Shown here in pieces: positions 1 to 13,826 of a DNA stretch of 13,828 bases. Origin of the DNA: a virus (lineage: Duplodnaviria > Heunggongvirae > Uroviricota > Caudoviricetes > Autographiviridae); IMG/VR virus record IMGVR_UViG_2660238008_000004. One strand, written 5' to 3'. A model generated the notes under the pieces. It worked only from the letters and a program-made list of their open reading frames with translations. It made no database searches and was not told the DNA's origin. Made by a program: the position numbers and the translations under genes. Numbering within the stretch: the first letter of the stretch is position 1; each line of letters opens with the position of its first letter.

Positions 1-127
1 GGTGCTTTTGCCGTTACGCACCACCCCGTCAGTAGCTGAACAGGAGGGACAGCTGATAGAAACAGAAGCCACTGGAGCACCTCAAAAACACCATCATACA
101 CTAAATCAGTAAGTTGGCAGCATCACC
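1..127 (-). mobile_element. IS1 insertion sequence, terminal 127 bp (rest lies beyond the window start)
   Basis: Reverse complement of 105-127 is GGTGATGCTGCCAACTTACTGAT, which I recognise as the IS1 left inverted repeat; the following bases match the IS1 left end including the start of insA (GTG at 70-72 on the minus strand, about 24 codons visible). Element/flank junction at 127/128. Recognition is from memory of the IS1 sequence. Confidence 0.85.
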
Positions 128-355
128 TGAGCAGTGTGTATTGAGTCCTTTTGTAGCTAAAGCTATTACAGATATTCCCGGCTTGAAAAATTGCACGTTT
201 ATGGTTGCCCCTCCCTCAACTGTATAGCTCGCCCGCGCCCCCGTGCGCATGTGCGTGCCCGCGCGTCAGGGGTCGCTGAGAAAACCCTAAGATTTTGCTC
301 ATCCGAGACAACCGTTGCAGGCGCGCGTTGCCGGGGCACACTACTAGTGTTTGAT

Positions 356-460
356 GGTGTCATCAATCGTTCGATTCTTGCTACCTGTCTGAGTGATTAC
401 TATCTGGTGTCATCAATTTAGGGTTTGACTAAATGCTACCATCAATGCAAAGATGCTACC
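356..460. repeat. Cluster of short direct repeats upstream of the serine recombinase gene: GGTGTCATCAAT at 356-367 and 406-417, related ACCATCAATGC at 438-448, ATGCTACC at 433-440 and 453-460
   Basis: Exact 12-mer repeated 50 bp apart with a third CATCAAT copy 30 bp further on, all within 140 bp of the recombinase start codon. The repeats are seen directly; a binding-site role is inference. Confidence 0.5.
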
Positions 461-491
461 GTTTTGTGATACCAGATGGGTGAGGTGAAGC

Positions 492-1067
492 ATGAGGACT
501 TTTATCTACTGCCGCGTTTCAACACGCGAGCAGGATACGCAGAATCAGGTGCTGGCTATTGAGCGTGCCGGGTACACGGTGCCTGAGAGCAGGGTAATCA
601 GCGAGGACATTTCCGGCAGCGTTCAGGCTATGCAGCGCCCTAAGTTTCGAGCGATGGTTGAGCATAAGCTGGAAGCGGGAGATCAGCTTGTCGTGCTGAA
701 ACTGGACAGGCTGGGGCGCGACAACATCGACGTGCAACAGACCATCGACATGCTGTTAGAACGCGGCGTGAAGGTGGTGTCTCTTGACCTGCCAGCGCGT
801 GATCTGACTTCATCTGAGGGCAAGCTAATCCGCCAGATGTTTGGAGCCTTTGCTGAGTTCGAGCGAAACCGTATCCGTGAGAGGACGCTTGACGGGCTGG
901 AGAAGGCGAAAGCCAATGGCGTTAAGCTGGGACGCAAGGAAGCCACCGACACCACTCAAAAGGTGCAGGAGCTGCGGAGTGAGGGGCTGTCTCAATCGAA
1001 GGTAGCTAAGCGTCTCGGCGTTAGCGTGAGCACCGTTAAACGCCACTGGAACAAGGGCGAGGGATGA
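492..1067 (+). CDS. Serine recombinase (resolvase/DNA invertase family), 191 aa
   Basis: N-terminal catalytic motif YCRVSTREQ with the nucleophilic serine, LDRLGRD motif, and C-terminal HTH (SQSKVAKRLGVSVSTVKRH); size typical of Hin/Gin/resolvase proteins. GAGGTG ribosome-binding site 5 nt upstream of ATG 492. Confidence 0.9.
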   Translation: MRTFIYCRVSTREQDTQNQVLAIERAGYTVPESRVISEDISGSVQAMQRPKFRAMVEHKLEAGDQLVVLKLDRLGRDNIDVQQTIDMLLERGVKVVSLDLPARDLTSSEGKLIRQMFGAFAEFERNRIRERTLDGLEKAKANGVKLGRKEATDTTQKVQELRSEGLSQSKVAKRLGVSVSTVKRHWNKGEG

Positions 1068-1133
1068 TGACCTACAAGCGAATGAGGTGCTACGACTGGC
1101 CGTTACTGGGCTGTGGGTGATGGATGACCTACA
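1066..1133. repeat. 11-bp direct repeat GATGACCTACA (1066-1076 and 1123-1133) overlapping the stop codon of the serine recombinase gene
   Basis: Exact 11-mer twice, 57 bp apart, unlikely by chance. Function unknown; possibly part of a recombination or regulatory site. Confidence 0.5.
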
Positions 1134-1770
1134 GCTTTTGTATTTATTTCAGAGGGTTATGTTATACGTAATATCATAACGATATGATTTATAATGTATT
1201 TTCGTGTTACTTGCGGCTCTCGATGTGAAGAGGTGGCGGGGCTTTAGCCGTGCCAGACGATGAACATCGAGATCAGATTGTGAATGTGAGTTATCACTGA
1301 ACAATTCGAGGGATGGGGCAGGGGAAGGGATCAAAGGCTGCGTTGTCCAATCACTAAGCTAGATTTGAAGCTGGTCAACACGTTAGTAGTATCTTTAAAG
1401 TTGCATTTGAAATACATGTACAGGAAAGGGTTCTTCCCTTACATCCCTTCTCCTAAATGTAGTTACGAGTGCTTCGCTCTCTTCACTTGCTGCGCTTCTC
1501 GCTATGCTCCAGCCCGCTCCATCGCCTTTGGCTCATTCCCGGTCTTCGCCCGCTGCTGATGCTCGGCGACTCTACGCAACCGTGCTTGCCGTGGCAGGCA
1601 ACGCGGCGGGGATGTGTAGTGGAACGGTACTCTTTATCGGTATTGTTAATTTAATCAATCATATACTGTTATCGGTAGGTATTCTTCAAAACATCTTCAT
1701 TCATTTCTGTATCGTTCAATCATCTTTCTTTTTCGTTTCCTTTCAGGTCTTAGCCGTCGGTCATTGGTCT

Positions 1771-1876
1771 TACTGCCTGCTGTGCTACTGCCAGCTATGG
1801 CACGCCGTCACGGTTACTGTCTGTCACCTGTCCTACTGCCTTCACTGTCTGCCGTCTGTCAGTCCTACGGTCTGCC
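1771..1876 (+). repeat. Iteron-like array: five same-orientation copies of YACTGYC (1771, 1786, 1815, 1834, 1844) plus related GTCTGCC/GTCTGTC copies (1847, 1854, 1870) in a pyrimidine-rich tract
   Basis: Repeats seen directly in a region with no credible ORF; followed by an AT-rich block at about 1930-2040. Interpretation as replication-origin iterons or another protein-binding array is inference. Confidence 0.45.
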
Positions 1877-2330
1877 ATCCGTCATCAGTTCGGCGCTCGC
1901 TTGTTTCGGCTGCGCCGCGCTCGCTCTGCGTATCTAGCGATACTATATCACTATAGACACTTTCATAATTATCTATTGATATCAGTAACTTATATTTTTA
2001 ATTTTAAAGGCTACTAATAAGGAGATATAGAGCATTACTTTCCCGCTTTTGACCGACAAAAATCGCGCTGTTAAGTATTGCCAGCCCAGGCTCAGTAAGG
2101 CTTAGCGAGGTTGTGGTTAAAAATTGACCTAATGAAGGTATCTACTAAGGAGAAAGAATAACTCCCGAAGCGCGACAAACTCTCCGATTTTGAAAGTGAC
2201 TATTAAGGCAGATAAAGACACTGACACTGTTGCCGACATGAAAACCTCTATAAGGGCAGAGAGTCTGCCGCACCTGTACCACCGCCCCAACCTGAGCTAA
2301 TACCTACCCCTATTTTCTGGAGATTTCACC

Positions 2331-4175
2331 ATGCCAACAAACCTACGCCGCCTGCTTGCGCAGGCTGCCGACGCTGACCCGCTCAATACTGCGGACGCAG
2401 ATGTACAGCAAATGATCGCTGACGGGGTTGTTATTCGACGTTCCAAGATATGCCCCGTAAAGCGTAAGCCCGTTAAGGCGGCATACAACACAAAGACCGA
2501 AGAGTTTTATTACAATGCAGATGGCTCCGCGATGACCTTGCGGGAGTGGCGAACGCTGCACGGTGTTCAACCGAAGAAACAAAAACAGCGCTCTGACGCT
2601 GGGTTGCGGCAAGTCATCCAGCCCGGCGACGCGATTCACTGCCGACGCGCTGAGATTGAGCAATGGCTAAATAAAAAGCCTGCTCGTTATGTTGAACCAC
2701 TGCCGCCAGATTTCCCCGGCGTTCGCGTAGACGATGCCGCATTGAAACCGCGCGAGCACGCCGTGCCGGAATCAACAACCGGACAGAATGCTTTTCTCAA
2801 AGCCTGCCGCGAGTTTCTCATTTGCGATGAGAAGACCATGCGCCGAATTAACAGGGGCATGGGTAAACTGGAAGCGATGCGTAACGCAGATTTCAAACGC
2901 TACGGAGACTCAGGGGAGTTTCGTCAATTTTGGTGTGGAGAGTCGAAGCCTACCGAAGATAGATTTAATAATACAAATCATCATTGTGACCCGAACGGCT
3001 TGGCTGCTTCGCCGTCTGTGCCGCCACTGAATACTACGCCGTATGAGTTCCGCCCCCTGGCTCGCTGTGACCGAAACGCACGCGTTAGCCTGCTGCCACC
3101 TGATGGGCTGGAGTGGAGGCCGGGGCAATTGTCTGTTGCTGATGCGATCTTTTCCCGTGGCAGTGATGTGCTTGCCGTTCTGCCTACTGGGTATGGCAAA
3201 AGCGCTGCCTTCACTTACCCATTGATTTATGAATCCCGCGCTGGCGTTGGCCTGTCTGTTATCGTTGTTCCTACTAATACCCTTAAGCGTCAGATTCTCC
3301 GCCAGTTGCGGGAGGCTGGCGTTCACGCTGTGGCATTTGGTGACAAGCTGCCGAGGCACCGCAATGCGCAACAACTGGCGGGGCTGGCTGCCGGGGCGTT
3401 CCGGGTTGCAGTCGTTTCGCCTGAACATCTGGTTCCGTCGAGTCAGGTTCTCGCGGCGCTGATGGCTTATGGCGTTGATCGTTTTATTATCGATGAGGCA
3501 CACACGGTCAAAGACTGGGATTTCCGCCCAGCTTACGACGCAATGCAGCACACACTACAGAATGCCTTTCCTTCGGCTCAACGCTGCGTGTTTACGGCTA
3601 CGCTGCTACGCGAAAATGAGCGCAGTTTAATGGAGTCGCTTGGCTGCCGTGGCGATTACGTAACATTCCGCGCTGATGTTGCTCGCGAGAATATCCAGTT
3701 GACGCCAGTCAGACAGTGCCGCGAACGTTTCCGAGCGGCTATTGGTCTGGTCGAGGCTCTGCCGAAAGAAGAGAAGACGCTTATTCTCGTCAATGACCTT
3801 AAAACGTTGCGGGCGTACCTGAAACTCTTGGGCGACCGGGCGCGGCCATATCACTCGAAGACGATGCACCTGAGCAACGAGGAACGCCACGCAAACGCTG
3901 AGTGGTTTGCCTCTACGCCGGGCGCGATTCTTATTGCTACTAAAGCCTTCGGGCTGGGTGCTGATGTTCCTGATATCCGTAACGTTGTCGTGACATACGT
4001 CCCCGATGATTTGCCTGATCTCGTTCAGATGATTGGACGAGCCGGGCGCGATGGGGAACCTGCCCGCGCTTTTCTGCTGTGGTCATCGCTGGCGCTGGAT
4101 GTTGCGCCTGATGAGCTTGCTTACTTCTACCGCCCTGAAAACTGCAACTGGCAGTACATCGCTAAATACCTCTGA
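2331..4175 (+). CDS. RecQ-family (SF2) DNA helicase core with an unrecognised ~270-aa N-terminal extension; lacks RQC/HRDC C-terminal domains; 614 aa
   Basis: Walker A LPTGYGKS preceded by a motif-0-like segment (RPGQLSVADAIF); motif Ia IVVPTNTLKRQ; motif II with the RecQ signature IIDEAHTVKDWDFRPAY; motif III FTATL; motif VI MIGRAGRDG about 40 aa from the C-terminus. GGAG ribosome-binding site 8 nt upstream of ATG 2331. Confidence 0.85.
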   Translation: MPTNLRRLLAQAADADPLNTADADVQQMIADGVVIRRSKICPVKRKPVKAAYNTKTEEFYYNADGSAMTLREWRTLHGVQPKKQKQRSDAGLRQVIQPGDAIHCRRAEIEQWLNKKPARYVEPLPPDFPGVRVDDAALKPREHAVPESTTGQNAFLKACREFLICDEKTMRRINRGMGKLEAMRNADFKRYGDSGEFRQFWCGESKPTEDRFNNTNHHCDPNGLAASPSVPPLNTTPYEFRPLARCDRNARVSLLPPDGLEWRPGQLSVADAIFSRGSDVLAVLPTGYGKSAAFTYPLIYESRAGVGLSVIVVPTNTLKRQILRQLREAGVHAVAFGDKLPRHRNAQQLAGLAAGAFRVAVVSPEHLVPSSQVLAALMAYGVDRFIIDEAHTVKDWDFRPAYDAMQHTLQNAFPSAQRCVFTATLLRENERSLMESLGCRGDYVTFRADVARENIQLTPVRQCRERFRAAIGLVEALPKEEKTLILVNDLKTLRAYLKLLGDRARPYHSKTMHLSNEERHANAEWFASTPGAILIATKAFGLGADVPDIRNVVVTYVPDDLPDLVQMIGRAGRDGEPARAFLLWSSLALDVAPDELAYFYRPENCNWQYIAKYL

Positions 4176-4212
4176 GTCGAAAGGCTCTCCCTGATTCTCT
4201 GGAGTTAATCAT

Positions 4213-4650
4213 ATGCCTGTTACCGAACATGCGCAGCGTCGTGCTGCGCGTGCGGATGCGCTCATCACCGCACAACTAGCTTTCGCCCTGAATGGGTACA
4301 ACTGGGATGAACTGGCCGAACCTCATCGCAAGACCCTTAATCGTGAGGCCATCATTCGCGAGGTATTTACACCGCTGGAGCGATATTGCCTGCTGAATGA
4401 TTGCGAGCCGTGGGAGTGTCTGGCCGCTGTACTGAACCGCATGAAAAGGCCGGATGGCTCGCGTCGCTGGAAAGCCGTCCGGTTGTCCGACCGGGTTTTC
4501 AATGGCCGGGTGCATCCGGTACGCAAGACTCCTGATGAAGTTTACGCCGCCATTGCCCGCCGTTTGTTTCTGCCGAAGCCCGTGCATCAAGAAGTGATTC
4601 AGCACATCCGTGCGCTAGGCCTGTTACCAGTTGGAGATAACCACCAATGA
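4213..4650 (+). CDS. Hypothetical protein, 145 aa
   Basis: ORF with GGAG ribosome-binding site 8 nt upstream; co-directional with the helicase and 37 bp downstream of it; no recognisable motif. Confidence 0.6.
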   Translation: MPVTEHAQRRAARADALITAQLAFALNGYNWDELAEPHRKTLNREAIIREVFTPLERYCLLNDCEPWECLAAVLNRMKRPDGSRRWKAVRLSDRVFNGRVHPVRKTPDEVYAAIARRLFLPKPVHQEVIQHIRALGLLPVGDNHQ

Positions 4651-4856
4651 CGAAATCTGAATTTGAAGCCGGAGCATGGGAACTAAAAACCCTGCTGCTG
4701 GGTGCGTTGACGCGCAGGCTTAAGGAGGACGAGGCGGGAGAGTCACGCATGGCTGCTGCCGAGTTGTCATCCTGCGTGAACTTCCTCAAGCAGAACGCCG
4801 CCGACTCGCCTGATACAACCTTTAACAACGTGTTCCCGGAGGATGACGACCAATGA
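4647..4856 (+). CDS. Hypothetical small protein, 69 aa
   Basis: Start ATG overlaps the upstream stop (ATGA at 4647-4650), indicating translational coupling; GGAG 11 nt upstream. Confidence 0.5.
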   Translation: MTKSEFEAGAWELKTLLLGALTRRLKEDEAGESRMAAAELSSCVNFLKQNAADSPDTTFNNVFPEDDDQ

Positions 4857-5029
4857 CCCCTGAACAGTTCCGGCAATGGTTCGCCACGCTGCCGGAGAAA
4901 TATCAACGTGTAGTCCGCTTCATGTACGACAACGCCCGCAAGTCGGGCACACACACCGCGTCAAGCCTTGCGCTGATTCACACGTTGGTTACTGACCAGA
5001 TCAAATTTGATTCGGAGTTTAATTTATGA
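4853..5029 (+). CDS. Hypothetical small protein, 58 aa (below the ORF-track cutoff; MTPEQFRQWFATLPEKYQRVVRF...)
   Basis: Hand translation from ATG 4853, which overlaps the upstream stop (ATGA); GGAGG 11 nt upstream; its stop TGA 5027-5029 overlaps the next start ATG 5026. It fills an otherwise unexplained gap in a tightly packed operon. Confidence 0.45.
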   Translation: MTPEQFRQWFATLPEKYQRVVRFMYDNARKSGTHTASSLALIHTLVTDQIKFDSEFNL

Positions 5030-5589
5030 CTTTGAGTATTACCGATATCCAGCGCATTAACGCGCTGGCTCATAAGCACCTAAAGAACAATGAAGAGATT
5101 GCAGCGGAGACAGGTCATACCCTGACCGATATTGATGCAGTAATCCGTGGCGCCTATGTCGATGACTTGGCCGAACATTGGAAAGACGATGCTGATATTA
5201 ATCTGGCGGAGTACAACGCCATCCGCAGCCGCTATAAGCCCGGCAAGCTGCACCGCGATACAGAGTTTATGATTGCCCGCGATATGCTGATTCGCCCTGA
5301 GACGGTGCTGGCTATCGCCCATTCCCGCTTTAGCAACGCCCACACGCACCCGGTACAGAAACCCTTGAAGGTGAAGCCAGCGAAGCCGAAAGTAGTGCGC
5401 AAGTTAGTGCCTACTGATTTAGATGAAATCCACAAGTTAGAGCGCTTCGGTTGGCCTGCTGCGGAGATCGCCGGGAAGCTGGGCGTCCCTGTTGAGGTCG
5501 TCGCGCATGTGCAACGCTGCCTGAGAAATCGTTGGTCGTACCCGGATACTCTGGAGTCTGTTAACTCCAAATTCAGCGAGGCTGAATGA
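5026..5589 (+). CDS. Hypothetical protein, 187 aa, possible C-terminal HTH
   Basis: ORF translationally coupled to its upstream neighbour; C-terminal segment WPAAEIAGKLGVPVEVVAHVQRCL looks HTH-like (weak). Confidence 0.6.
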   Translation: MTLSITDIQRINALAHKHLKNNEEIAAETGHTLTDIDAVIRGAYVDDLAEHWKDDADINLAEYNAIRSRYKPGKLHRDTEFMIARDMLIRPETVLAIAHSRFSNAHTHPVQKPLKVKPAKPKVVRKLVPTDLDEIHKLERFGWPAAEIAGKLGVPVEVVAHVQRCLRNRWSYPDTLESVNSKFSEAE

Positions 5590-5822
5590 TGGCAGAGAAC
5601 GAACCGCTGCACCCCGCCGTTAACCCTGATCTCTACGTGAACCTTGACGAACAACGCGAAGGATACGCTCCGATTGAATCACGGGGTTGGGATGTGCTGA
5701 CGCAGAACCTGACCGGGAAAGGTCGAACTGACCCCAGCCAAACACTTAACCAGAATCCGAAACAACGCCCGCGCGGCTCCGTTGGTGAGCGTCGTTGGCT
5801 TCGTAAACGTGGATTACTTTAA
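5586..5822 (+). CDS. Hypothetical small protein, 78 aa
   Basis: ATGA start/stop overlap with the upstream gene; basic C-terminus. Confidence 0.5.
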   Translation: MMAENEPLHPAVNPDLYVNLDEQREGYAPIESRGWDVLTQNLTGKGRTDPSQTLNQNPKQRPRGSVGERRWLRKRGLL

Positions 5823-5834
5823 CGAGGAATTACC

Positions 5835-6074
5835 ATGAGCAAAACTATCGTATTGCTGCCGCCCCGCAAGAATACAGACTGGGCTGCACAATTAAAGCTG
5901 ATTTCTGAATCGCTTGAGGTGAGTCAGGCAGACCTCGCCCACGCCTATCAGGTTGATCGTCGGGATATGGGTAAAGCGTATCACGGTGTGCGCAAACTGC
6001 CGGAACGTTGTGTGCCTGTTCATATGCTGTTGTTAGCGCAGGTACACGACTTTAGAGCATTATCAGGAGAGTAA
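5835..6074 (+). CDS. Hypothetical small protein, 79 aa
   Basis: ORF with GAGG ribosome-binding site upstream of ATG 5835; no recognisable motif. Confidence 0.5.
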   Translation: MSKTIVLLPPRKNTDWAAQLKLISESLEVSQADLAHAYQVDRRDMGKAYHGVRKLPERCVPVHMLLLAQVHDFRALSGE

Positions 6075-6077
6075 TTT

Positions 6078-6758
6078 ATGTCTGACCAGAATGTTAATCC
6101 GTACCTTTCCGGTGCTGATGCTGCATCGCAGCAATCGCCATACATGGCTGCACCTGTTGGAGTTGACAATGGAGCATCCCGCTTTAGCTCTGCGCCTGCT
6201 GATGCTGATTTCCTCCGTACCCAACCCGTTAACGGCAATGATGGCGGACAATGGAATAATGGCAATATCGCAAATCAGCAAGACCAGAACGCTGACAGCG
6301 CTGGGGCGCAAGTGGGCGACACACTGCAATTACAGGATGGCACCACTGTTGAGTTGACTCCTGAACTTCATGGGCTGATGGGGCAGTTTCACCAGTCTGT
6401 CGAAAGCCAGCTAGGTCAGGGTACAGTTGACGCGATGTTGCAGTACGCTGGCACGCTCGACGCCGGGACGCAATCAACCCTTGAACGGATGGTCATGTCT
6501 GGCGATCCCGCGCAGATGTCGCGTGCGGTTCAGTATCTGCAAGAGCGTATGGCTGGCGGTTCCATTACCGGTTACGTCCCGAACGGCCAGACTGCCGCGC
6601 AACCTGTCGGAATGTCACATGCTGAGTTTATAGCAGCGTATGACCAGCTTTCGCAGTGGGCGCAGCAATCAGGGTATGGCCCCGGCCATCGCCAGTACGA
6701 TGAACAATACCGCGCTCTGGTTGCGCAGCGCTCCGCTGGCAAACGTGCTGGTCGCTAA
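6078..6758 (+). CDS. Hypothetical protein, 226 aa, with low-complexity Q/N/G/A/S/D-rich N-terminal ~100 aa and a predicted helical C-terminal half
   Basis: AGGAG ribosome-binding site upstream of ATG 6078; the compositional bias is visible in the translation. Possible scaffold or other virion-associated protein given the capsid-like gene downstream (speculative). Confidence 0.6.
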   Translation: MSDQNVNPYLSGADAASQQSPYMAAPVGVDNGASRFSSAPADADFLRTQPVNGNDGGQWNNGNIANQQDQNADSAGAQVGDTLQLQDGTTVELTPELHGLMGQFHQSVESQLGQGTVDAMLQYAGTLDAGTQSTLERMVMSGDPAQMSRAVQYLQERMAGGSITGYVPNGQTAAQPVGMSHAEFIAAYDQLSQWAQQSGYGPGHRQYDEQYRALVAQRSAGKRAGR

Positions 6759-6897
6759 CGCCCAACTGTGGAATGCGCCCTGCAAGACCGAGTGCGCACC
6801 GACCCGGTACTACCACACCAATCTATGCGCATGAGTCCCCGCAAGCCGCATTCTGCGCGGCATCTGAAAGCCTGTTTTTAATTAACCGAGGTTCGTA

Positions 6898-7311
6898 ATG
6901 AGTACCTGTAATTTCCATGCTGTGGAGCGTGTCGCTGACGTGCGCCCGGATTTCGCCTTGCCGCTGGGTAGATGTGATCATGTTTACCCTGAGCGTGTGC
7001 CGCACGTTTTCAATCCAGACGAAGCGGTTTATATCGTTGCACGGTCTGCCACATCCGGCACCCGCACATCTGGCGTTAGCCGTGGGCTTTCCCCTGTGCT
7101 GCCGCCGAAGATGGCCGAGCGGATGCGCGAACGTGAACGGCACGAGAAGAATCGAGCCAGACCCCGCAAGGTAATCACTGAGGCGATACGCGCTGACATT
7201 ATCGTTCGCTCTGCAAAAGGCCAGAAGAATCGTTACATTGCAAGCAAGGTTGGCGTGTCTGAAACCTCTGTGCGGAAGGTGTTGAACATGGCGCGTATGA
7301 GTGCGCACTAA
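6898..7311 (+). CDS. Putative DNA-binding protein with C-terminal HTH, 137 aa
   Basis: C-terminal IRADIIVRSAKGQKNRYIASKVGVSETSVRKVL resembles a resolvase/sigma-type HTH; GAGG ribosome-binding site upstream; the gene is isolated by 139-bp and 198-bp intergenic gaps. Confidence 0.55.
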   Translation: MSTCNFHAVERVADVRPDFALPLGRCDHVYPERVPHVFNPDEAVYIVARSATSGTRTSGVSRGLSPVLPPKMAERMRERERHEKNRARPRKVITEAIRADIIVRSAKGQKNRYIASKVGVSETSVRKVLNMARMSAH

Positions 7312-7425
7312 TGCAAGGTAATACGTTCGCCTTACTTCACGCGCACTAACCCCTGAGAACCGCGCCAGCTCTGGCCTCAAAACGCCCATTTCGGGGCACC
7401 TCATCCCTTTAATCGATACCGTTCT

Positions 7426-7450
7426 GAATCCTGCCTCGGCGGGAGGATTC
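7426..7450. promoter_or_regulatory. Inverted repeat GAATCCTgCC-(tcggc)-GGgAGGATTC about 60 bp upstream of the capsid-like gene
   Basis: 7-bp perfect arms (GAATCCT/AGGATTC) extended to 9 of 10; no T-run follows, so not a classic intrinsic terminator; candidate operator or RNA hairpin. Confidence 0.3.
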
Positions 7451-7509
7451 CGCACGTCTGTGCCATGACGATGGCGCGGGCTTCATCAACCTACGTAGGA
7501 GTTTTGTTT

Positions 7510-8505
7510 ATGGCTGATACTTCGTACAGTCCCGATCTGTTTCGCCCACATTATGGCGGGGTGGAATCCGACAATGATATTCACATCGAGGCTTATGACC
7601 GGGATGTCCAGACCCGTTTAGAGTCCAAATCCGTATTTCTGGCCGAGGGGCTGTCTACATACAGGCCGCTGAAAGGCAGCAACCAATACCGCATTGATCG
7701 CCTGAGTGGTGATCTTGAGGTGAAGGGCAGAACCGCAGGGCAATCGCTGGAGCCTACCGCCGTTAAGTCGGACAAGTTGGTTATCTCTGTGGATACGCTG
7801 AGTTATATCCGCGTCCCGATTGACTATCAGGACGATTGGACAGCACCCACATTTCGCGCAGAGCTGAGCCGCAATATCGGCACTGCGCACGCTAAGTTCT
7901 ACGACGAAGCGCACACCATCCAGTTAATCAAAGCGACTGACTTTGTACCGCCGCCGACACTGCAACCAACGTTTAACCCGCTTACGAATAACGTTGTCTC
8001 GCTCGACCTGACAGCGGGGAGCGAAGAGGACGCCGCAAACGAATTGGTTCACGCCGTCAAAGCGGCTGCTAATCGCTTCCTCACTGAGAAAGATATTCCG
8101 GTGGCCGAGCTGGTGCTTCTCATTGACCCTGCATGGTTCAGCATCCTGATGGAACATAAGAAGCTGATGAACGTCCGTTACAGCCGGGATAGTGGCAACG
8201 ATTACGCATGGCGTCGCGTTGGCTATGTCGCTGGGGTGCGAGTCATTGAGCTGAACAGTTACCCGCAGGAAGTCATTACCGGGCATGAACTGGGCGCTGA
8301 TTATGACGTTACCGCAGAGGAAGCGATGACGAGGGCGACGCTGTTTAAACCTTCCTCTGTGCTGCTGACGGTCGAAGCGCAGAGCGTCATCAATCGCCAG
8401 TGGGATGATGAACGCGAAATGACAATGGTGATGGACTCATATCGCCTGTTCAACGTTGGGCTGCGTCGTCCTGACTGCGTTATCAATTTCCGACAAGCTG
8501 CATAA
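7510..8505 (+). CDS. Hypothetical protein, 332 aa; possible HK97-fold major capsid protein (weak resemblance to T7 gp10-type capsid proteins)
   Basis: Strong AGGAG ribosome-binding site 8 nt upstream of ATG 7510 (preferred over the track start 7465, which has none). By-eye similarity to recalled T7 gp10 segments (KLVISVDTLSYIRVPIDYQDD versus KVITIDGLLTADVLIYDIEDA; LIDPAWFSIL versus CDPDSYSAIL; C-terminal GLRRPDCVINF versus GGLRPEAAGAVVF). The product call is tentative. Confidence 0.4.
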   Translation: MADTSYSPDLFRPHYGGVESDNDIHIEAYDRDVQTRLESKSVFLAEGLSTYRPLKGSNQYRIDRLSGDLEVKGRTAGQSLEPTAVKSDKLVISVDTLSYIRVPIDYQDDWTAPTFRAELSRNIGTAHAKFYDEAHTIQLIKATDFVPPPTLQPTFNPLTNNVVSLDLTAGSEEDAANELVHAVKAAANRFLTEKDIPVAELVLLIDPAWFSILMEHKKLMNVRYSRDSGNDYAWRRVGYVAGVRVIELNSYPQEVITGHELGADYDVTAEEAMTRATLFKPSSVLLTVEAQSVINRQWDDEREMTMVMDSYRLFNVGLRRPDCVINFRQAA

Positions 8506-8521
8506 CTGGAGGGGCTGAGTC

Positions 8522-9031
8522 ATGGTTAATGATGCTTACGCCCCTGAGCTGCTGTGTTCCCTTTTCCTGTATGACCCGGTGACAGGCCGCCTGCACCATA
8601 AAGCTAACCGACGCCGGGTTAAGGCTGGCTCCTATGCTGACTCCACCCGGCGAGCTGATGGCTATCGTCAAGTTGCCCTGCGACTTGATGGCAAGCAGTA
8701 CCAGCTAAAAGCCCATCGCGTGGCGTGGATTCTTGCGCATGGCGCTATTCCTCATGGTAAGCAGATCGATCACATCAACGGTATCCGTGACGACAATCGC
8801 CTATGCAATCTGCGCTTGGTTACGCAGCGGGAAAACGACCAGAACCGACGCAAGGCAAGGGGGTATAGCTGGAATAAGGGCTGTAGAAAATGGGAGGCTT
8901 ACATACGCGTTGATGGTGTACTCCGTCACCTTGGCTTATTTACTACCGAAGTGGCGGCGCGTGCTGCCTATCTAAAAGCTAAAGCCAGATGCCATCCCTC
9001 AACGCCAGCCGATTTATTGCAGGCTGCCTAA
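8522..9031 (+). CDS. HNH endonuclease (HNH_3-type) with C-terminal AP2-like DNA-binding domain, 169 aa
   Basis: Motif HRVAWILAHGAIPHGKQIDHINGIRDDNRLCNLRLVTQRENDQN (H-N-H with conserved asparagines) followed by KWEAYIRVDGVLRHLGLFTTEVAARAAY (AP2-like); GGAGG ribosome-binding site upstream of ATG 8522. Confidence 0.85.
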   Translation: MVNDAYAPELLCSLFLYDPVTGRLHHKANRRRVKAGSYADSTRRADGYRQVALRLDGKQYQLKAHRVAWILAHGAIPHGKQIDHINGIRDDNRLCNLRLVTQRENDQNRRKARGYSWNKGCRKWEAYIRVDGVLRHLGLFTTEVAARAAYLKAKARCHPSTPADLLQAA

Positions 9032-9049
9032 TCCTCGGAGGTTCCATTA

Positions 9050-9475
9050 ATGGCTGATGAAAAGCCGATTAGAGCGCTGGCAGATGATGACCCACGCCGC
9101 CAGCGGTACGCTGAACTGTTGGCGCAGGCTGGCCGCATGTCTATTCCCCGGCTGCATCCGGGCGATGCTAATAGTGTTATGAGTCAGCTTGCGACGATGC
9201 TTGGCGCACCTGTCCCGATAGTCGGTGCTATGACTGAGCACGCCGCTGCATGGCGTGTCTGTCTGCTGGATCAAGGGCTTGGCGATCTTCTGGATGGCTT
9301 GAGTAAGCAGGTGCTGACCGTCTTCTTTCTGCTTTGCTGGAGAGATAGCGCCTTGCGATTGGCAGGTAAGCAAAAGGAACGGCTTACAGCGGCCAGCGAG
9401 GGTTTGACCATTGAGCAATACCGGGCAATGCACCCGGCTTACAGAGAGGATAAAGAAGATGATAACCACAATTAA
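9050..9475 (+). CDS. Hypothetical protein, 141 aa (small-terminase-like role is only a positional guess)
   Basis: GGAGG ribosome-binding site 8 nt upstream of ATG 9050; no recognisable motif. Confidence 0.5.
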   Translation: MADEKPIRALADDDPRRQRYAELLAQAGRMSIPRLHPGDANSVMSQLATMLGAPVPIVGAMTEHAAAWRVCLLDQGLGDLLDGLSKQVLTVFFLLCWRDSALRLAGKQKERLTAASEGLTIEQYRAMHPAYREDKEDDNHN

Positions 9476-9758
9476 ATTAAGGTGGCGGTACATCGAGCCG
9501 CCGCCAATGACTGGCACACTTGCTTACCTGAAACAGTGGGTAATAGATACCGGAGAGCCTGAGCTTGAAGCTGAGTTTCGTAAGCTGCTGGGGCTAATGC
9601 GCCGCAATGGTATCAGTGACGAACGCGTTAATGCGTTGGCCGATGAGCTTTATGCTTTGGTACGCCAGCGCCAGTGCGAAGAATATGAAGCCTGCAAGCG
9701 GGCTTCATCTGACAATGGAGACTTTGAATCATGGTTACACGGACAGACCAGCTATTAA
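9459..9758 (+). CDS. Hypothetical protein, about 99 aa
   Basis: Start chosen at ATG 9459 (GAGAGGA upstream; overlaps the preceding gene by 17 nt) rather than the track start 9411; start position is uncertain. Confidence 0.4.
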   Translation: MITTIKLRWRYIEPPPMTGTLAYLKQWVIDTGEPELEAEFRKLLGLMRRNGISDERVNALADELYALVRQRQCEEYEACKRASSDNGDFESWLHGQTSY

Positions 9759-10159
9759 GAAAAGCTATGCGGGGCTATCTGGAACACCTTGGCAATATGC
9801 CACTGGCGGAACGGATTACAAACGCTGCTGCATTCGAAGATGTTTATCGCTTCCTGTTGAATGGTTCCGGGCGGCTGGAGTTGCGCCGCGCTGATGTGGC
9901 CGCTGTCCGTGTCTTCCTGTGGAATTATCAATACCGACGCTGTGCGGTGACAGGTAAGCCGCTGCGCCTTGCGTCTGCCGTGCTGGATCACTGCCACCGA
10001 ACCGGGCGCGTGCGTGCTGTGGTGCATCGCTCTGCTAATGCTGCTGAGGGTGGCTATTATGTAGGGCGGGTGTGTGGACTCTCACCCGGTAGCATGAATT
10101 TCATGCTACCAGCCTACCGCCGCCACTACAAGGGGCTGGGTATTATTTATCCAGCATAA
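9731..10159 (+). CDS. Endonuclease VII-like protein, 142 aa
   Basis: Segment CAVTGKPL...LDHCHRTGRVRAVVHRSANAAEG parallels the T4 endonuclease VII core (C-x2-C ... DHDH ... VRGLLCNLCNAAEG) recalled from memory, with several zinc-ligand cysteines replaced by His/Ser. Start 9731 overlaps the upstream gene by 28 nt. Confidence 0.55.
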   Translation: MVTRTDQLLRKAMRGYLEHLGNMPLAERITNAAAFEDVYRFLLNGSGRLELRRADVAAVRVFLWNYQYRRCAVTGKPLRLASAVLDHCHRTGRVRAVVHRSANAAEGGYYVGRVCGLSPGSMNFMLPAYRRHYKGLGIIYPA

Positions 10160-10246
10160 CATTGGTCATGGCTCTATTTATTTTATTTTCATGAGGTTAC
10201 ATGTTGCTGTGGCTGCCTATTTACTTGCTCGTATTTAAAACAATTC

Positions 10247-10275
10247 TTGACGGATTGATGTAGATTGCGTAATCT
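10247..10275 (+). promoter_or_regulatory. Sigma70-type promoter: -35 TTGACG (10247-10252), 17-bp spacer, -10 TAATCT (10270-10275), with AT-rich upstream tract
   Basis: Near-consensus hexamers with ideal spacing, about 60 bp upstream of the small ORF at 10337; seen directly. Confidence 0.5.
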
Positions 10276-10336
10276 CCACTTAAAATAACTGCCTACAATG
10301 TGTGCAGGCCAATCACCGAAAAACAGGAGGTACAAT

Positions 10337-10492
10337 ATGACAAAGGCGAAAATCAGCCCCGTATCGACTGGTATGAGTAGGGATGCTCTGAATGCTCTTA
10401 TCAAGACAACGCGTACTGTAGCGCGTAAAAGTTCCAGAGAAACTGATGAGCGTTTAGCTGAATACAGTAAAGTACATGCCGCTTGCAATTGA
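10337..10492 (+). CDS. Small basic protein, 51 aa; candidate antitoxin/partner of the downstream toxin-like gene
   Basis: Strong AGGAGG ribosome-binding site 6 nt upstream of ATG 10337; overlaps the downstream ORF by 17 nt; does not resemble YafN/Phd-type antitoxins as I recall them. Confidence 0.5.
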   Translation: MTKAKISPVSTGMSRDALNALIKTTRTVARKSSRETDERLAEYSKVHAACN

Positions 10493-10949
10493 GTTTGATT
10501 GCTGTGAAAAACTCGCCAATGATGGCGAGTTTCTTCCTTTTTATCAGGAGTTCTGTCGCTATAAGCAACTAAGTGCAGAGCATTCCCGCCCCCGATATTC
10601 CATCCAAAAACTTTTTGCATCTATTTCGCTGCTCTTTGGCAGAGATAGGGACAATGTTGATGAAGATAAGCCGTATCATCAGAAAAGAGAAGGTTTAACA
10701 CATCTACATGTGAGGCAGGAAGACAGTGTCTGGGAGGATGACAATGGGCATCCACTGGTACAATGGAAATGTAAAAGTAACAGCTATTTGATATATTCGT
10801 ATTTTGTATTCTCAGGTACAAGGCACTACTATATTGTTGATTTTATTGATCATGATGCCCATGCAAATTGGGACAATCAAGAAGCAATACAAATGTGGAT
10901 AGATGAAGCTAAACAATATCGAGAACGTATAACAGAAGCGGCTGCATAG
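10476..10949 (+). CDS. YafO-like toxin candidate (type II toxin family), 157 aa
   Basis: By-eye similarity to E. coli YafO recalled from memory: EFCRYKQ versus DFISYKR, LFGRDRDNVDED versus IFGRDALYDDSF, HLHV versus HIHL, and C-terminal HDAHANWDNQEAIQMWIDEA versus EPHKLARDNNQMHKIGKMAE. Poor own ribosome-binding site, consistent with coupling to the upstream small ORF. Confidence 0.45.
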   Translation: MPLAIEFDCCEKLANDGEFLPFYQEFCRYKQLSAEHSRPRYSIQKLFASISLLFGRDRDNVDEDKPYHQKREGLTHLHVRQEDSVWEDDNGHPLVQWKCKSNSYLIYSYFVFSGTRHYYIVDFIDHDAHANWDNQEAIQMWIDEAKQYRERITEAAA

Positions 10950-10977
10950 GAAGCCGATATTATTCGGCTTCTTCTCT
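10950..10977 (+). terminator. Hairpin GAAGCCG-(8 nt loop)-CGGCTTC followed by TTCTCT, immediately after the toxin-like gene stop
   Basis: 7-bp stem seen directly; the U-tract is weak (TTCTCT). It lies between convergent genes, 8 bp from the minus-strand integrase stop. Confidence 0.35.
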
Positions 10978-10984
10978 AAGCATT

Positions 10985-12193
10985 TCATTTAATTAATTCA
11001 TAATCTATTAATTCAATATACCGGCGCATCTCTAAAGGGGATGCTGCGTTTTTTGAATATGTCTTAAAACTCTCAGTGCTACCTCGTTCGTGGCCTACAA
11101 GCAGAGCGATCCTATCTTCTGGCACTTGAGCACGGTCGAGTTGTTGCACAAACGCATGGCGGAGTGAGTGAAACACTTTTCTCTCTGCGGCAAGTTCGCC
11201 AAGAGCTTTACGCTTTGCCCGTGTGAACTGCTGCGTATGCCACGTTGAGCGCTTCCCATCCGCCCGGTCTGTAATTGACGCGTGATTGAACAGAAAACCG
11301 CTATGTGTGGTTTTGAGCAATGATTTCACGAGGGGGATTAGCTTGCTGTGTACTGGGACGATTCGTGCCGCGCTCTTGGTCTTCCCCTCGGTGATCTCAA
11401 AGCACAAAACGCCCTCGATGGTTTTAATACTGCTCTCACGCAGCGTACATATTTCATTGATCCGCATACCGCTGTAAGCACCAATAGCCGTTACCGCCTT
11501 CATCTCGTCATCAAGCAAGGTATAGACCTTTGCCAGCTCTCCCGGTGCGAAGACTTCATAGCTGACCTTGCTGCTTTTTGCTTCGAGTGCATGACCACGC
11601 CAAGGGTTATCCTGTGGCGCATCGTGATAGCGATTGCGTGCCAAATCCCATATCTGCGCCAGTGCACTGATATAGTTCTGGATGGTTTGGGGCGCTCGCT
11701 CAGTTTTGAGTTTATCTAACCAGCCTGTAACTATGGTTCGGTTAATATCTCGCAACTGAACATCTTTCTTTTTCAGGTGGGTTAACAGCACCTCTACGGC
11801 TTTATTGGTCTTGGATAGCGTGGTTAGCTTTCGCTTCTCGCTGTATTGAAGCAGGTACAAATCACGCATTTTTAGCAAGGAAGGGCAAGCCTGAATCGAT
11901 GCACCAAACGATGCGGGGGCTTCCTTGGCGTACACACTGACACGGCGTAGCTCATCAATGATTTGGTCTACAGATGAGCCGCCTTGTGGCTTTAGCAGAT
12001 TCCGTAAGCGAGTCCATTCCAGAGCAATAGCATCGCGAAACAATCGCGCTTGCCGTATGTCTCGTGTCCCTGTGCTTTTCATAAAGTAGCGTTTCCCTTG
12101 GAACAGGTGACGCATATAGCTGGGGATAGCTATCCGCACGAGGTAATTCCCGCAGGGATCTAAAACTAGATAACGATCTCTCTTGAAACTCAT
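10985..12193 (-). CDS. Tyrosine recombinase / phage-type integrase, 402 aa
   Basis: Catalytic residues in conserved context: GMRINEI (Arg), HSLRHAF (His-x-x-Arg), LVGHERGSTESFKTYSK (His and Tyr nucleophile); N-terminal arm-binding-like region (GKRYFMKSTGTRD). Its 5' end lies 134 bp from the tRNA fragment. Confidence 0.9.
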   Translation of the reverse strand: MSFKRDRYLVLDPCGNYLVRIAIPSYMRHLFQGKRYFMKSTGTRDIRQARLFRDAIALEWTRLRNLLKPQGGSSVDQIIDELRRVSVYAKEAPASFGASIQACPSLLKMRDLYLLQYSEKRKLTTLSKTNKAVEVLLTHLKKKDVQLRDINRTIVTGWLDKLKTERAPQTIQNYISALAQIWDLARNRYHDAPQDNPWRGHALEAKSSKVSYEVFAPGELAKVYTLLDDEMKAVTAIGAYSGMRINEICTLRESSIKTIEGVLCFEITEGKTKSAARIVPVHSKLIPLVKSLLKTTHSGFLFNHASITDRADGKRSTWHTQQFTRAKRKALGELAAERKVFHSLRHAFVQQLDRAQVPEDRIALLVGHERGSTESFKTYSKNAASPLEMRRYIELIDYELIK

Positions 12194-12326
12194 ACAAACC
12201 CCGGTTATGTTGTCGGGGCTTTTTCATGGCTAAACAGTCTGTGAAATGTGCCGGGGTTATGAGCTTTATTCTAGCTAGTTCAACGAGTTAACGATGATTA
12301 TTGAAGCAAGCTAAGCCGCCTAAACC

Positions 12327-12357
12327 CGTGCCGGTTCGAGTCCGGCCTTCGGCACCA
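12327..12357 (+). other. 3'-terminal fragment of a tRNA-Leu gene (T-arm, 3' acceptor strand, CCA), not a complete tRNA; candidate att core / direct repeat
   Basis: CGTGCCGGTTCGAGTCCGGCCTTCGGCACCA: T-stem GCCGG/CCGGC around loop TTCGAGT, then CTTCGGC-A-CCA. Matches the 3' end of E. coli tRNA-Leu(CAA) leuX as recalled. No D-arm or anticodon arm upstream; upstream sequence diverges at 12326. Confidence 0.75.
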
Positions 12358-12479: not shown

Positions 12480-12531
12480 GTGAGTATACTAATGAGTATA
12501 TTTGCCGATTCGATATTGCTTGTATACTCAC
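12480..12531. promoter_or_regulatory. Repeats in the integrase upstream region: GTGAGTATAC (12480-12489), TGAGTATA (12493-12500) and inverted GTATACTCAC (12522-12531)
   Basis: 10-bp inverted repeat with an extra direct copy, 27-78 bp upstream of the integrase start; candidate integrase arm-type sites or operator. Seen directly; function inferred. Confidence 0.4.
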
Positions 12532-12557
12532 GAGATACCAATGGAAGGAAGACCATT

Positions 12558-13826
12558 ATGGCCCTAACGGATACTAAAGTTCGCTCTGCGAAACCTGAGG
12601 AGAAAGAGTATTCACTTGTTGACGGCGACGGCATGTCCTTACTTGTAAAACCTGGCGGTTCAAAGTATTGGCGATTTCGTTTCCGTTTTGGCGGTAAACA
12701 ACATTTGATGGCGTTCGGCGTTTACCCGGATGTTTCACTGGCGGATGCGCGGAAGAAAAGGGAAGAGGCCAGAAAGCTGGTAGCTGCTGGTATCGATCCT
12801 CGTGAGCATAAGCGTGCTGTGAAAGAAGAGCAGGCGAAAGAGATTATTACTTTCGAGAAGGTTGCCAGAGAGTGGCTCGTAACCAACCAAAAATGGTCGG
12901 AAGATCATGCTAATCGTGTAAAAAAGAGCCTGAAGGACAATATCTTCCCGGCAATTGGTGCTCGCAATATTGCTGAACTGGGCACCCGCGATCTGTTAAT
13001 TCCTATTAAAGCCGTGGAGAAATCCGGACGTCTTGAAGTGGCTTCCCGCCTTCAACAGCGCACCACGGCCATCATGCGTTATGCAGTGCAAAGCGGGTTA
13101 ATTGATTACAATCCGGCGCAAGAGATGGCGGGGGCGGTTGCTTCCAGTAATCGACAGCATCGTCCGGCGCTGGAGTTAAAGCGTATCCCGGAATTACTCC
13201 AGAAAATCGATGAATACACCGGCAGGCCACTAACCCGCTGGGCAACCGAACTTACTCTGCTTATTTTTATTCGATCCAGTGAGCTGCGTTTTGCTCGCTG
13301 GTCAGAAATCGATTTTGAAACGTCAATGTGGACCATCCCGCCTGAGCGAGAACCTATTCCCGGTGTGAAACATTCTCAGCGAGGTTCAAAGATGCGCACA
13401 CCTCATCTGGTGCCGCTTTCAAAGCAGGCGCTAGCGATCCTGAAGCAGATAAAACAGTTCTGTGGCGAACATGAACTGATTTTTATTGGCGATCACGATC
13501 CACGTAAGCCCATGAGCGAGAACACGGTAAACAGTGCGCTACGGGTGATGGGTTATGACACTAAGGTTGAAGTTTGCGGCCACGGCTTCCGCACAATGGC
13601 CTGTAGTTCGTTAATTGAGTCAGGACTATGGTCGAAGGATGCGGTGGAAAGGCAGATGAGCCATATGGAACGCAATTCGGTGAGGGCGGCGTATATCCAT
13701 AAAGCGGAACATCTGGATGAGCGTAAACTGATGTTGCAGTGGTGGGCTGATTTTCTGGATGCGAACAGAGAGAAGAGTATCAGTCCGTTTGAATATGCAA
13801 AGGTTAACAATCCGCTGAGAAGGTGA
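12558..13826 (+). CDS. P4-family tyrosine integrase, 422 aa; stop codon at 13824-13826, two bases before the window end
   Basis: N-terminus MALTDTKVRSAKPEEKEYSLVDGDGMSLLVKPGGSKYWRFRFRFGGKQ is the characteristic P4-type integrase arm-binding domain; C-terminal catalytic region (HGFRTMACS, RQMSHMERNSVRAAY). Start chosen at ATG 12558 with AAGGAAG ribosome-binding site rather than track start 12480. Orientation matches the tRNA fragment, as in tRNA-then-int islands. Confidence 0.9.
   Translation: MALTDTKVRSAKPEEKEYSLVDGDGMSLLVKPGGSKYWRFRFRFGGKQHLMAFGVYPDVSLADARKKREEARKLVAAGIDPREHKRAVKEEQAKEIITFEKVAREWLVTNQKWSEDHANRVKKSLKDNIFPAIGARNIAELGTRDLLIPIKAVEKSGRLEVASRLQQRTTAIMRYAVQSGLIDYNPAQEMAGAVASSNRQHRPALELKRIPELLQKIDEYTGRPLTRWATELTLLIFIRSSELRFARWSEIDFETSMWTIPPEREPIPGVKHSQRGSKMRTPHLVPLSKQALAILKQIKQFCGEHELIFIGDHDPRKPMSENTVNSALRVMGYDTKVEVCGHGFRTMACSSLIESGLWSKDAVERQMSHMERNSVRAAYIHKAEHLDERKLMLQWWADFLDANREKSISPFEYAKVNNPLRR

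Follow-up and report, generated by a model that had tools for sequence, protein, structure and literature searches.

The window analysed here is the full stretch of IMG/VR record IMGVR_UViG_2660238008_000004 (13,828 nt, one strand; coordinates are counted from its first letter). The subject is a pair of overlapping genes on the plus strand: a small open reading frame (ORF) of 51 aa (10337–10492, stop codon 10490–10492; isoelectric point, pI, 10.0), the proposed antitoxin, called from its translation, homologues and selection; and an ORF of 157 aa (10476–10949; pI 5.3), the product of which resembles the toxins of the YafO family. An earlier note, made from the sequence alone, had described an AT-rich, compositionally distinct module between a structural-like cluster and an integrase, with a near-consensus sigma70 promoter, a strongly initiated 51-aa ORF overlapping a 157-aa ORF by 17 nt, and a hairpin after the stop. 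Apart from the wording of the promoter, this description is borne out by the details given below.

The pair is bounded on the left by an endonuclease VII-like gene (9731–10159, plus strand; identified by family matches), which closes the capsid/HNH cluster as the final conserved gene of the island core, and on the right by a tyrosine integrase gene with DUF6538 and Phage_integrase domains (10985–12193, minus strand). GC content is 40.6% in 10160–10980, against 53.5% in 1–10159 and 48.7% in the integrase gene; GC at third codon positions (GC3) is 0.34–0.37 for the two ORFs of the pair, against 0.56–0.61 for the capsid and helicase genes. In composition the pair is foreign.

Both ORFs and their overlap (10476–10492, 17 nt) were confirmed by reading the sequence; the toxin-like ORF starts inside the small one, and the overlap suggests translational coupling of the former to the latter. 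A Shine-Dalgarno sequence, AGGAGG (10325–10330, plus strand; read from the sequence), precedes the ATG at 10337 with a 6-nt spacer, and GGAGG or GGAGA is present at this position in all aligned loci. In a program-made ORF list the small ORF begins farther upstream, with the ATG at 10298 (64 aa); the start at 10337 is preferred because ribosome-binding site (RBS) and homologues agree with it. An antisense ORF of 143 aa (10189–10620, minus strand) overlaps the promoter and both genes; it is open in no relative (at most 65–86 aa there) and was rejected as a gene, being regarded as a spurious chance ORF because it is not conserved.

Upstream lies a conserved promoter block (10230–10275, plus strand) composed of an A/T-rich upstream stretch, a −35 element TTGACG (10247–10252), a 17-nt spacer GATTGATGTAGATTGCG and a −10 candidate TAATCT (10270–10275). 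The −35 element matches the consensus at 5/6 positions and does not vary in an alignment of seven diverged loci; the spacer hardly varies in four of them (the window, Klebsiella, Brenneria and contig L013), where synonymous sites of the adjacent genes are near saturation. A genuine promoter at 10247–10275 is therefore likely, as claimed in the earlier note; "near-consensus" is overstated because the −10 candidate matches at only 3/6 positions and the site is not called by a consensus promoter scan. The conservation of the spacer hints at a regulator-binding site or operator.

Between promoter and RBS, an imperfect inverted repeat (GCCTACA-N5-TGCAGGC, 10291–10309, no strand assigned) was noted as resembling a hairpin; it lacks conservation in other loci, was not reported by the repeat search and is probably nonfunctional. 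A LexA/SOS box was considered at almost the same place (CTG-N13-CAG, 10290–10308) by analogy with dinB-yafNO, and was rejected as wrongly spaced by eye and unconserved.

Two hairpins accompany the toxin-like ORF. The first, terminator-like with a U-run (10506–10542, plus strand; 10-bp stem, 4-nt loop, CTTCCTTTTT tail), lies in the 5′ end of the ORF and begins 14 nt past the stop of the small ORF (dG −15.6, z −4.3 by folding); it is kept in the Klebsiella and Brenneria loci, weak in Pantoea, and absent from contigs L013 and L011. A possible role is that of an attenuator setting the ratio of small protein to toxin, toward the small protein. The second (10948–10973, no strand assigned) has a 10-bp stem overlapping the TAG stop codon and lies between the convergent toxin and integrase genes (dG −18.9 kcal/mol, z −4.5; 0 of 200 shuffles fold as well); it is a likely terminator, with a weak U-tract (UUCUUCUCU).

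The YafO-family protein and its small partner

The resemblance of the larger protein to the YafO toxin, which the earlier note had pointed out and proposed to check by profile search, was recovered: the protein matches the Pfam profile PF13957 (YafO_toxin) at 41.2 bits (E 1.9e-10; gathering cut-off 25), residues 53–149 covering profile positions 12–100 of 101. The identical protein is labelled "type II toxin-antitoxin system YafO family toxin" by the NCBI Prokaryotic Genome Annotation Pipeline (PGAP) in four complete Escherichia coli genomes, and it also matches phrog_1651, a PHROG family without assigned function. Against the NCBIfam YafO equivalog PRK09885 it scores 23.7 bits, with a cut-off of 153, so that orthology to E. 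coli YafO is not supported; these profiles place the protein as a distant member of the YafO family and not as a YafO orthologue. Pfam counts PF_YafO as one of the RelE/ParE toxins of BECR fold; in its modules the antitoxin gene usually comes first and overlaps the toxin gene (PMC11980606).

Residues F26, Y29, K30, G55, D57, H76, H78, Q96, Y107 and H129 are invariant in an alignment of 18 sequences including YafO of E. coli K-12, and R149 is nearly so. Motifs F..YK, FGRD and HxH are common to the 157-aa protein and K-12 YafO, as are the Q, Y, H and R positions; the pairwise profile comparison of these two alone is weak (hhalign probability 8.8%). An N-terminal extension, considered because the Pfam match begins at residue 53, was rejected: the alignment with K-12 YafO shows instead an internal insertion of ~27 residues (EHxxPxRxxQ) between the N-terminal helix and FGRD.

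The upstream partner is unlike the YafN/Phd-type antitoxins, as the earlier note had it. Profile searches of the 51-aa protein, likewise proposed there for antitoxin families, gave no match in Pfam or NCBIfam, nor in PHROGs, PADLOC or PDB sequences, and no similarity to YafN was detected (hhalign probability 0.5%); profile searches of PDB sequences started from the toxin alignment or from the small-protein alignment also gave no match. An AlphaFold2 (AF2) model of the small protein (predicted local distance difference test, pLDDT, 83.6) has a disordered basic N-terminus (residues 1–14) followed by one long amphipathic helix (residues 15–50). A ribbon-helix-helix (RHH) fold of CopG/Arc type, suspected from a turn-like "SSRET" motif, was rejected, the helix being continuous over residues 15–50 (pLDDT ~90) and RHH matches lacking in Pfam and PDB; in all, no RHH, helix-turn-helix (HTH), AbrB or Phd domain was found by Pfam, NCBIfam, PDB-sequence profile search or the AF2 model. 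The partner is basic (pI 10.0) and the toxin acidic (pI 5.3), to be compared with 5.5 for YafN and 7.0 for YafO; among 13 partners of YafO-like toxins, pI is 10–11.9.

Homologues of the small protein at 80–100% identity are found in Klebsiella, Brenneria, Pantoea and Serratia. The ratio of nonsynonymous to synonymous substitutions (dN/dS, Nei-Gojobori) is 0.06–0.20 with dS >1, and among close relatives the small protein is the more conserved member of the pair; by this measure the 51-aa ORF is a real gene under purifying selection. An exhaustive search of 1.84 billion representative proteins with the small-protein profile returned only 15 matches at E ≤1e-3, which have in common the motif L-[IV]-K-T-T-R-x-[VI]-A-[RK]-x-S-S-x-E-T-D-x-R-L-x-E-[FY].

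These results bear on the explanation in which the small ORF is a leader or is open by chance, and the YafO-like gene codes for an orphan toxin with a neutraliser that acts in trans or is an RNA. PGAP leaves the small ORF uncalled, and a survey of Pseudomonas aeruginosa prophages lists YafO toxins without a partner (PMC10449497), both as this explanation would have it. It is nevertheless very improbable, and its chance-ORF part is essentially refuted by the selection analysis: to the low dN/dS are added the strong RBS, the presence of a small ORF upstream of every relative examined and the lack of conservation of the antisense ORF. An RNA antitoxin, or type III system, was rejected, with no Rfam match above threshold and no tandem repeats.

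Pairing of the two genes in relatives

Relatives of the toxin were collected by a profile search with the toxin alignment, which gave 41 clusters at 34–99% identity (full-length ones 135–223 aa), all carrying PF13957; scans of genome contigs and viral contigs with the same alignment gave pattern matches and no true relatives. Directly upstream of the toxin gene a basic ORF of 45–57 aa is found in all 18 distinct toxin contexts examined, the exception in size being a Citrobacter plasmid in which the annotated ORF has 77 aa. The two genes either overlap, by 17 nt or 4 nt, or are separated by no more than 37 nt, and the layout, with the small gene first, co-oriented and overlapping or nearly so, is that of every relative examined, over six kinds of genetic context.

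The contexts are as follows: satellite-like islands of Klebsiella, Brenneria and Pantoea and contigs L011 and L013, with the 17-nt overlap; P2-like prophages, with a partner of 53–57 aa and a gap of 2–7 nt, the pair standing behind gpU/gpD or immediately behind the portal gene; a PM2-like (Vinavirales) Vibrio prophage, with a 47-aa partner upstream of the toxin; a Rep3/MobA plasmid, with a partner of 45 aa and a 4-nt overlap; Acinetobacter baumannii plasmid pACICU1 and a 3.1-kb E. coli plasmid, with partners of 53 aa and 50 aa, respectively; and an Enterobacter plasmid, with an uncalled partner ORF of ~46 aa. Genes flanking the pair differ in every context, and there is thus no conserved third gene.

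Cognate pairing is favoured because a small basic ORF precedes the toxin across Klebsiella, Brenneria, Pantoea, P2-like and PM2-like prophages and plasmids. For toxins as low as ~38% in identity, the partner can still be aligned with the 51-aa family, and by sequence comparison a whole clade of YafO-like toxins has a small partner of this kind. The earlier note had suggested a toxin with a swapped or novel antitoxin, or a small defence pair next to the integrase. The second half of this suggestion, and the novelty of the partner, gain support from the conserved pairing and from the variable slot and defence neighbourhoods described below; a one-off swap does not fit, the arrangement being that of the whole clade. 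In an earlier survey, YafO toxins were paired with Phd antitoxins or with unclassified antitoxins proposed by guilt by association (Leplae et al., PMC3141249); the analysis described here supplies a description of that unclassified partner.

Two observations concern the P2-like prophages. Perfect palindromes of 34–44 bp (e.g. GTACTCTTCCTTAGAAGTTCCTAGGAACTTCTAAGGAAGAGTAC) lie ~40–45 nt upstream of the small ORF (L015 ~5750–5795; L018 ~5765–5800) and might act as operator or terminator or be a cos-proximal element. In one such prophage (L014 3749–5613) the pair is divergent beside umuDC-like genes (IMS Y-family polymerase and Peptidase_S24), a neighbourhood that echoes the linkage of dinB and yafNO in K-12.

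The host island and its cargo slot

An 831-bp query (10160–10990) is 100% identical to E. coli LR-33, where it is part of an island of ~14.9 kb located between tRNA-Leu and a 31-bp repeat of the tRNA 3′ end. The island covers positions 1–12357 of the window, and the pair lies inside it. Other genes of the island encode a small serine recombinase, a DEAD-box helicase, a major head protein (capsid gene, 7465–8505; phrog_267, E 7e-71), an HNH endonuclease, the endonuclease VII-like protein and the tyrosine integrase; family searches found no terminase, portal or tail gene among the island proteins. Satellite biology is suggested by a capsid protein in the company of none of these, and the island looks like a member of a little-studied, capsid-encoding family of phage satellites.

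The capsid gene is present in 58 of 5426 complete E. coli genomes, including enteropathogenic E. coli (EPEC) E2348/69, and the pair in only four, so that it is dispensable cargo within this island family. The interval between the endonuclease VII-like gene and the integrase gene is variable in the syntenic sister islands (window 10160–10984; L029 9708–10417; L030 9671–10701; L031 9714–10378). In EPEC E2348/69 it holds an AbiTii abortive-infection protein (PADLOC 163 bits, Pfam 151 bits); elsewhere it holds a 214-aa protein of no known function, the commonest type, or DUF3606 with a 92-aa protein (NCTC11023). It is a variable cargo slot, in which the pair is interchangeable with the known defence gene AbiTii.

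Comparable slots have been described in P4-like satellites (the psu-int hotspot) and in P2-like phages (the gpA-gpQ hotspot; PMC9122126). The relatives that follow the portal gene gpQ in P2-like prophages stand at the gpA-gpQ position. Defence genes are also found as neighbours of relatives: putAbiC with a KAP NTPase (PDC-S20); a homologue of PD-T7-4; and a type VI retron (RT_VI 256 bits, HTH_VI 125 bits).

The pair could instead be a pure addiction module that stabilises an island, prophage or plasmid by post-segregational killing and has no part in phage defence. Its presence on plasmids (the 3.1-kb E. coli plasmid, the Rep3/MobA plasmid and pACICU1) and in integrative elements beside their integrases is what such a module would lead one to expect, as is the lack of a PADLOC model for it; keeping mobile elements stable is the classical role of toxin-antitoxin (TA) systems of type II (PMC3141249). 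The repeated association with defence genes, in the same slot (AbiTii) and in other neighbourhoods (putAbiC, the PD-T7-4 homologue, the retron), speaks against it, as does the occurrence of the small-protein motif without the toxin in two phage contigs. Addiction and defence are compatible with each other, and neither point against addiction is decisive; as the sole role, we regard it as doubtful, while giving it more weight than the other alternatives.

In a different explanation, the small basic protein is no antitoxin and serves as a regulator or cofactor that binds nucleic acid, the acidic YafO-like protein being a non-toxic or conditionally active nuclease used by the satellite, e.g. for interference with a helper phage or for host takeover. 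The inverted charges (partner pI 10–11.9, toxin 5.3), the conserved basic N-terminal tail of the small protein, its want of a recognisable toxin-binding or DNA-binding antitoxin domain, the conserved promoter spacer as a conceivable binding site, and the satellite character of the island can all be read in this way. We consider it improbable: the pair moves intact between unrelated elements (P2-like and PM2-like prophages, plasmids), so that its function is not tied to the life cycle of one element; within the E. coli island family it is dispensable (4/58); and gene order and overlap are those typical of toxin-antitoxin pairs.

Interpretation, known systems and phage copies of the helix

The explanation to which we give moderate preference is that of a translationally coupled type II toxin-antitoxin or abortive-infection cassette with a minimal antitoxin lacking a DNA-binding domain. 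It starts from what is established, i.e. the toxin family, a real and selected small gene, strict co-occurrence, hotspot position and defence-gene neighbourhoods, and from a layout of type II kind (adjacent, co-oriented genes, the small one first, with overlap and a conserved pair). From these we infer toxicity and RNase activity of the toxin, its neutralisation by the small protein, the lability of the latter and an anti-phage effect.

The cassette is mobile cargo in the variable slot of a satellite-like, capsid-encoding island integrated at tRNA-Leu. By homology, the 157-aa protein (presumed BECR, RelE/HigB-like fold) should arrest translation by mRNA cleavage, and the basic amphipathic helix of the 51-aa protein would bind and mask the acidic toxin as its cognate neutraliser. 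Control of the operon is probably exerted through the promoter/spacer block, through translational coupling and, in this lineage, through the internal hairpin, which would favour an excess of small protein. The small protein is presumably labile; once its synthesis stops, on phage-induced shut-off or when the element is lost, the toxin would be free to arrest the cell, resulting in abortive-infection-type protection, stabilisation of the island, or both.

Several points weigh against a toxin-antitoxin or abortive-infection cassette. Toxicity and neutralisation are predictions from sequence. The AF2 model of the toxin is poor (pLDDT 61.6; below 50 for residues 49–100, which include FGRD and HxH), and Foldseek with this model found nothing significant in PDB or BFVD. 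Compared with classical RelE-type pairs the charges are inverted, with a basic partner and an acidic toxin, and RNases that bind ribosomes or RNA do not usually have an acidic surface. A DNA-binding, autoregulating antitoxin, as in type II systems, is lacking (no RHH, HTH, AbrB or Phd domain), and the repeat search found no clear palindromic operator in the promoter. Partners of the most distant toxins (≤37% identity) are alike in size, charge and position and have no detectable homology (hhalign probability 0.7%). Neither protein of the pair is in PADLOC-DB v2 (no match at E up to 1). Finally, the phage-borne copies of the motif, described below, are two single observations.

Among known systems, YafN-YafO of E. 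coli K-12, a type II system in the dinB operon, is similar in the toxin family (PF13957), in the F..YK, FGRD and HxH motifs and in the closely packed, antitoxin-first gene order. It differs in the following respects: K-12 YafO is only ~21% identical to the 157-aa protein, lacks the ~27-residue EHxxPxRxxQ insertion and has a pI of 7.0 instead of 5.3; YafN is an acidic Phd/YefM-type protein of 97 aa, whereas the partner here is a basic protein of 51 aa predicted as a single helix; and yafNO belongs to the SOS-regulated dinB operon, whereas the pair is found in a mobile-element cargo slot.

PaaA2 is an antitoxin of ~63 aa, largely disordered and helical. By description it resembles the small protein, as a small helical antitoxin without DNA-binding domain, directed against a toxin of the RelE/ParE superfamily and carried by a prophage-type element; it is the closest functional analogue for such an antitoxin. 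The paaR2-paaA2-parE2 system is assigned to a cryptic prophage of E. coli O157:H7 and to regulation by PaaR2 (PMC8630535). That system thus has a third gene, paaR2, for transcriptional control, whereas the pair has no conserved third gene, and its toxin is ParE in place of a YafO-family protein.

HigB2/HigB-type toxins, as structural neighbours, are 9–17% identical in sequence; the toxin model is of low confidence and gave no significant Foldseek match. In HigB systems the gene order is reversed and the antitoxins are of HTH type (PMC11980606). The defence cargo of hotspots (P4 psu-int, P2 gpA-gpQ; e.g. gop-beta-cII, AbiTii) is similar in its position between the last core (structural-side) gene and the integrase, in its foreign composition and in having its own promoter; the pair is mentioned in neither of the hotspot papers PMC9122126 and PMC13586616 and is absent from PADLOC.

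The toxin family was already known and annotated; new are the conserved, basic, ~50-aa partner, predicted to be a single helix, the clade-wide architecture and the status of hotspot cargo. YafO-family toxins of prophages and plasmids are routinely annotated as orphans because a partner so small and so unfamiliar escapes gene calling; a conserved basic partner of ~50 aa offers a rule to annotators and a defined pair to experimenters. Should the small protein neutralise without a DNA-binding domain and with inverted charges, a minimal antitoxin architecture would be added to the RelE/ParE superfamily. The integrase-side slot of the island family can be mined for further defence genes. The value of the finding would rise if toxicity, neutralisation and the phage-decoy idea set out next hold.

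The motif of the small protein recurs in two phage contigs. Protein P0054 (159 aa; gene at L022 5001–5480) has an RnlB_antitoxin match (PF15933, 46.9 bits, residues 34–99) followed by the motif at residues 120–157 (E 8.7e-7 over the whole library); it is encoded on an 89-kb contig that also encodes a DenV-like Pyr_excise protein and on which one neighbour gene has homologues in large phages. A related jumbo phage of 342 kb in IMG/VR (L032 3974–4366) has the same RnlB-like gene, ending just before the position of the motif, and likewise no YafO-like gene nearby. Protein P0056 (125 aa; L033 5001–5378), also with the motif, is encoded between terminase and portal genes in a 45-kb Caudoviricetes genome. 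No YafO-like ORF was found within 5 kb of the P0054 or P0056 gene (local hmmsearch, both contigs), and a tblastn search of GenBank phages gave no match for either the 51-aa protein or the RnlB fusion.

These copies would fit the idea that the 51-aa helix is a portable minimal neutralising module and the cassette an abortive-infection system countered by phage decoys, the RnlB-helix fusion then being a two-in-one anti-TA protein. We hold this to be speculative and on balance unlikely. If it is true, the arms race defines a new antitoxin class with inverted charges (basic antitoxin, acidic RNase), and anti-TA counter-defence could be tested on the phage-borne helix copies. Upstream of the phage RnlB-like gene, several repeat units of ~120 nt (GGCTTATTC/TTTTGGATACTTCTAC ... 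GATGCTTTCCAG) fill a non-coding stretch of 770 nt (L022 4200–4990).

At the right end of the island lies attR (12327–12357, plus strand), a 31-bp direct repeat of the tRNA-Leu 3′ end that matches exactly the tRNA-Leu gene flanking the LR-33 island. A second integrase gene, annotated as a tyrosine recombinase in LR-33, is found just past attR (12480–13826), from which it follows that the island is inserted into tRNA-Leu in tandem with an older leuX-type island.

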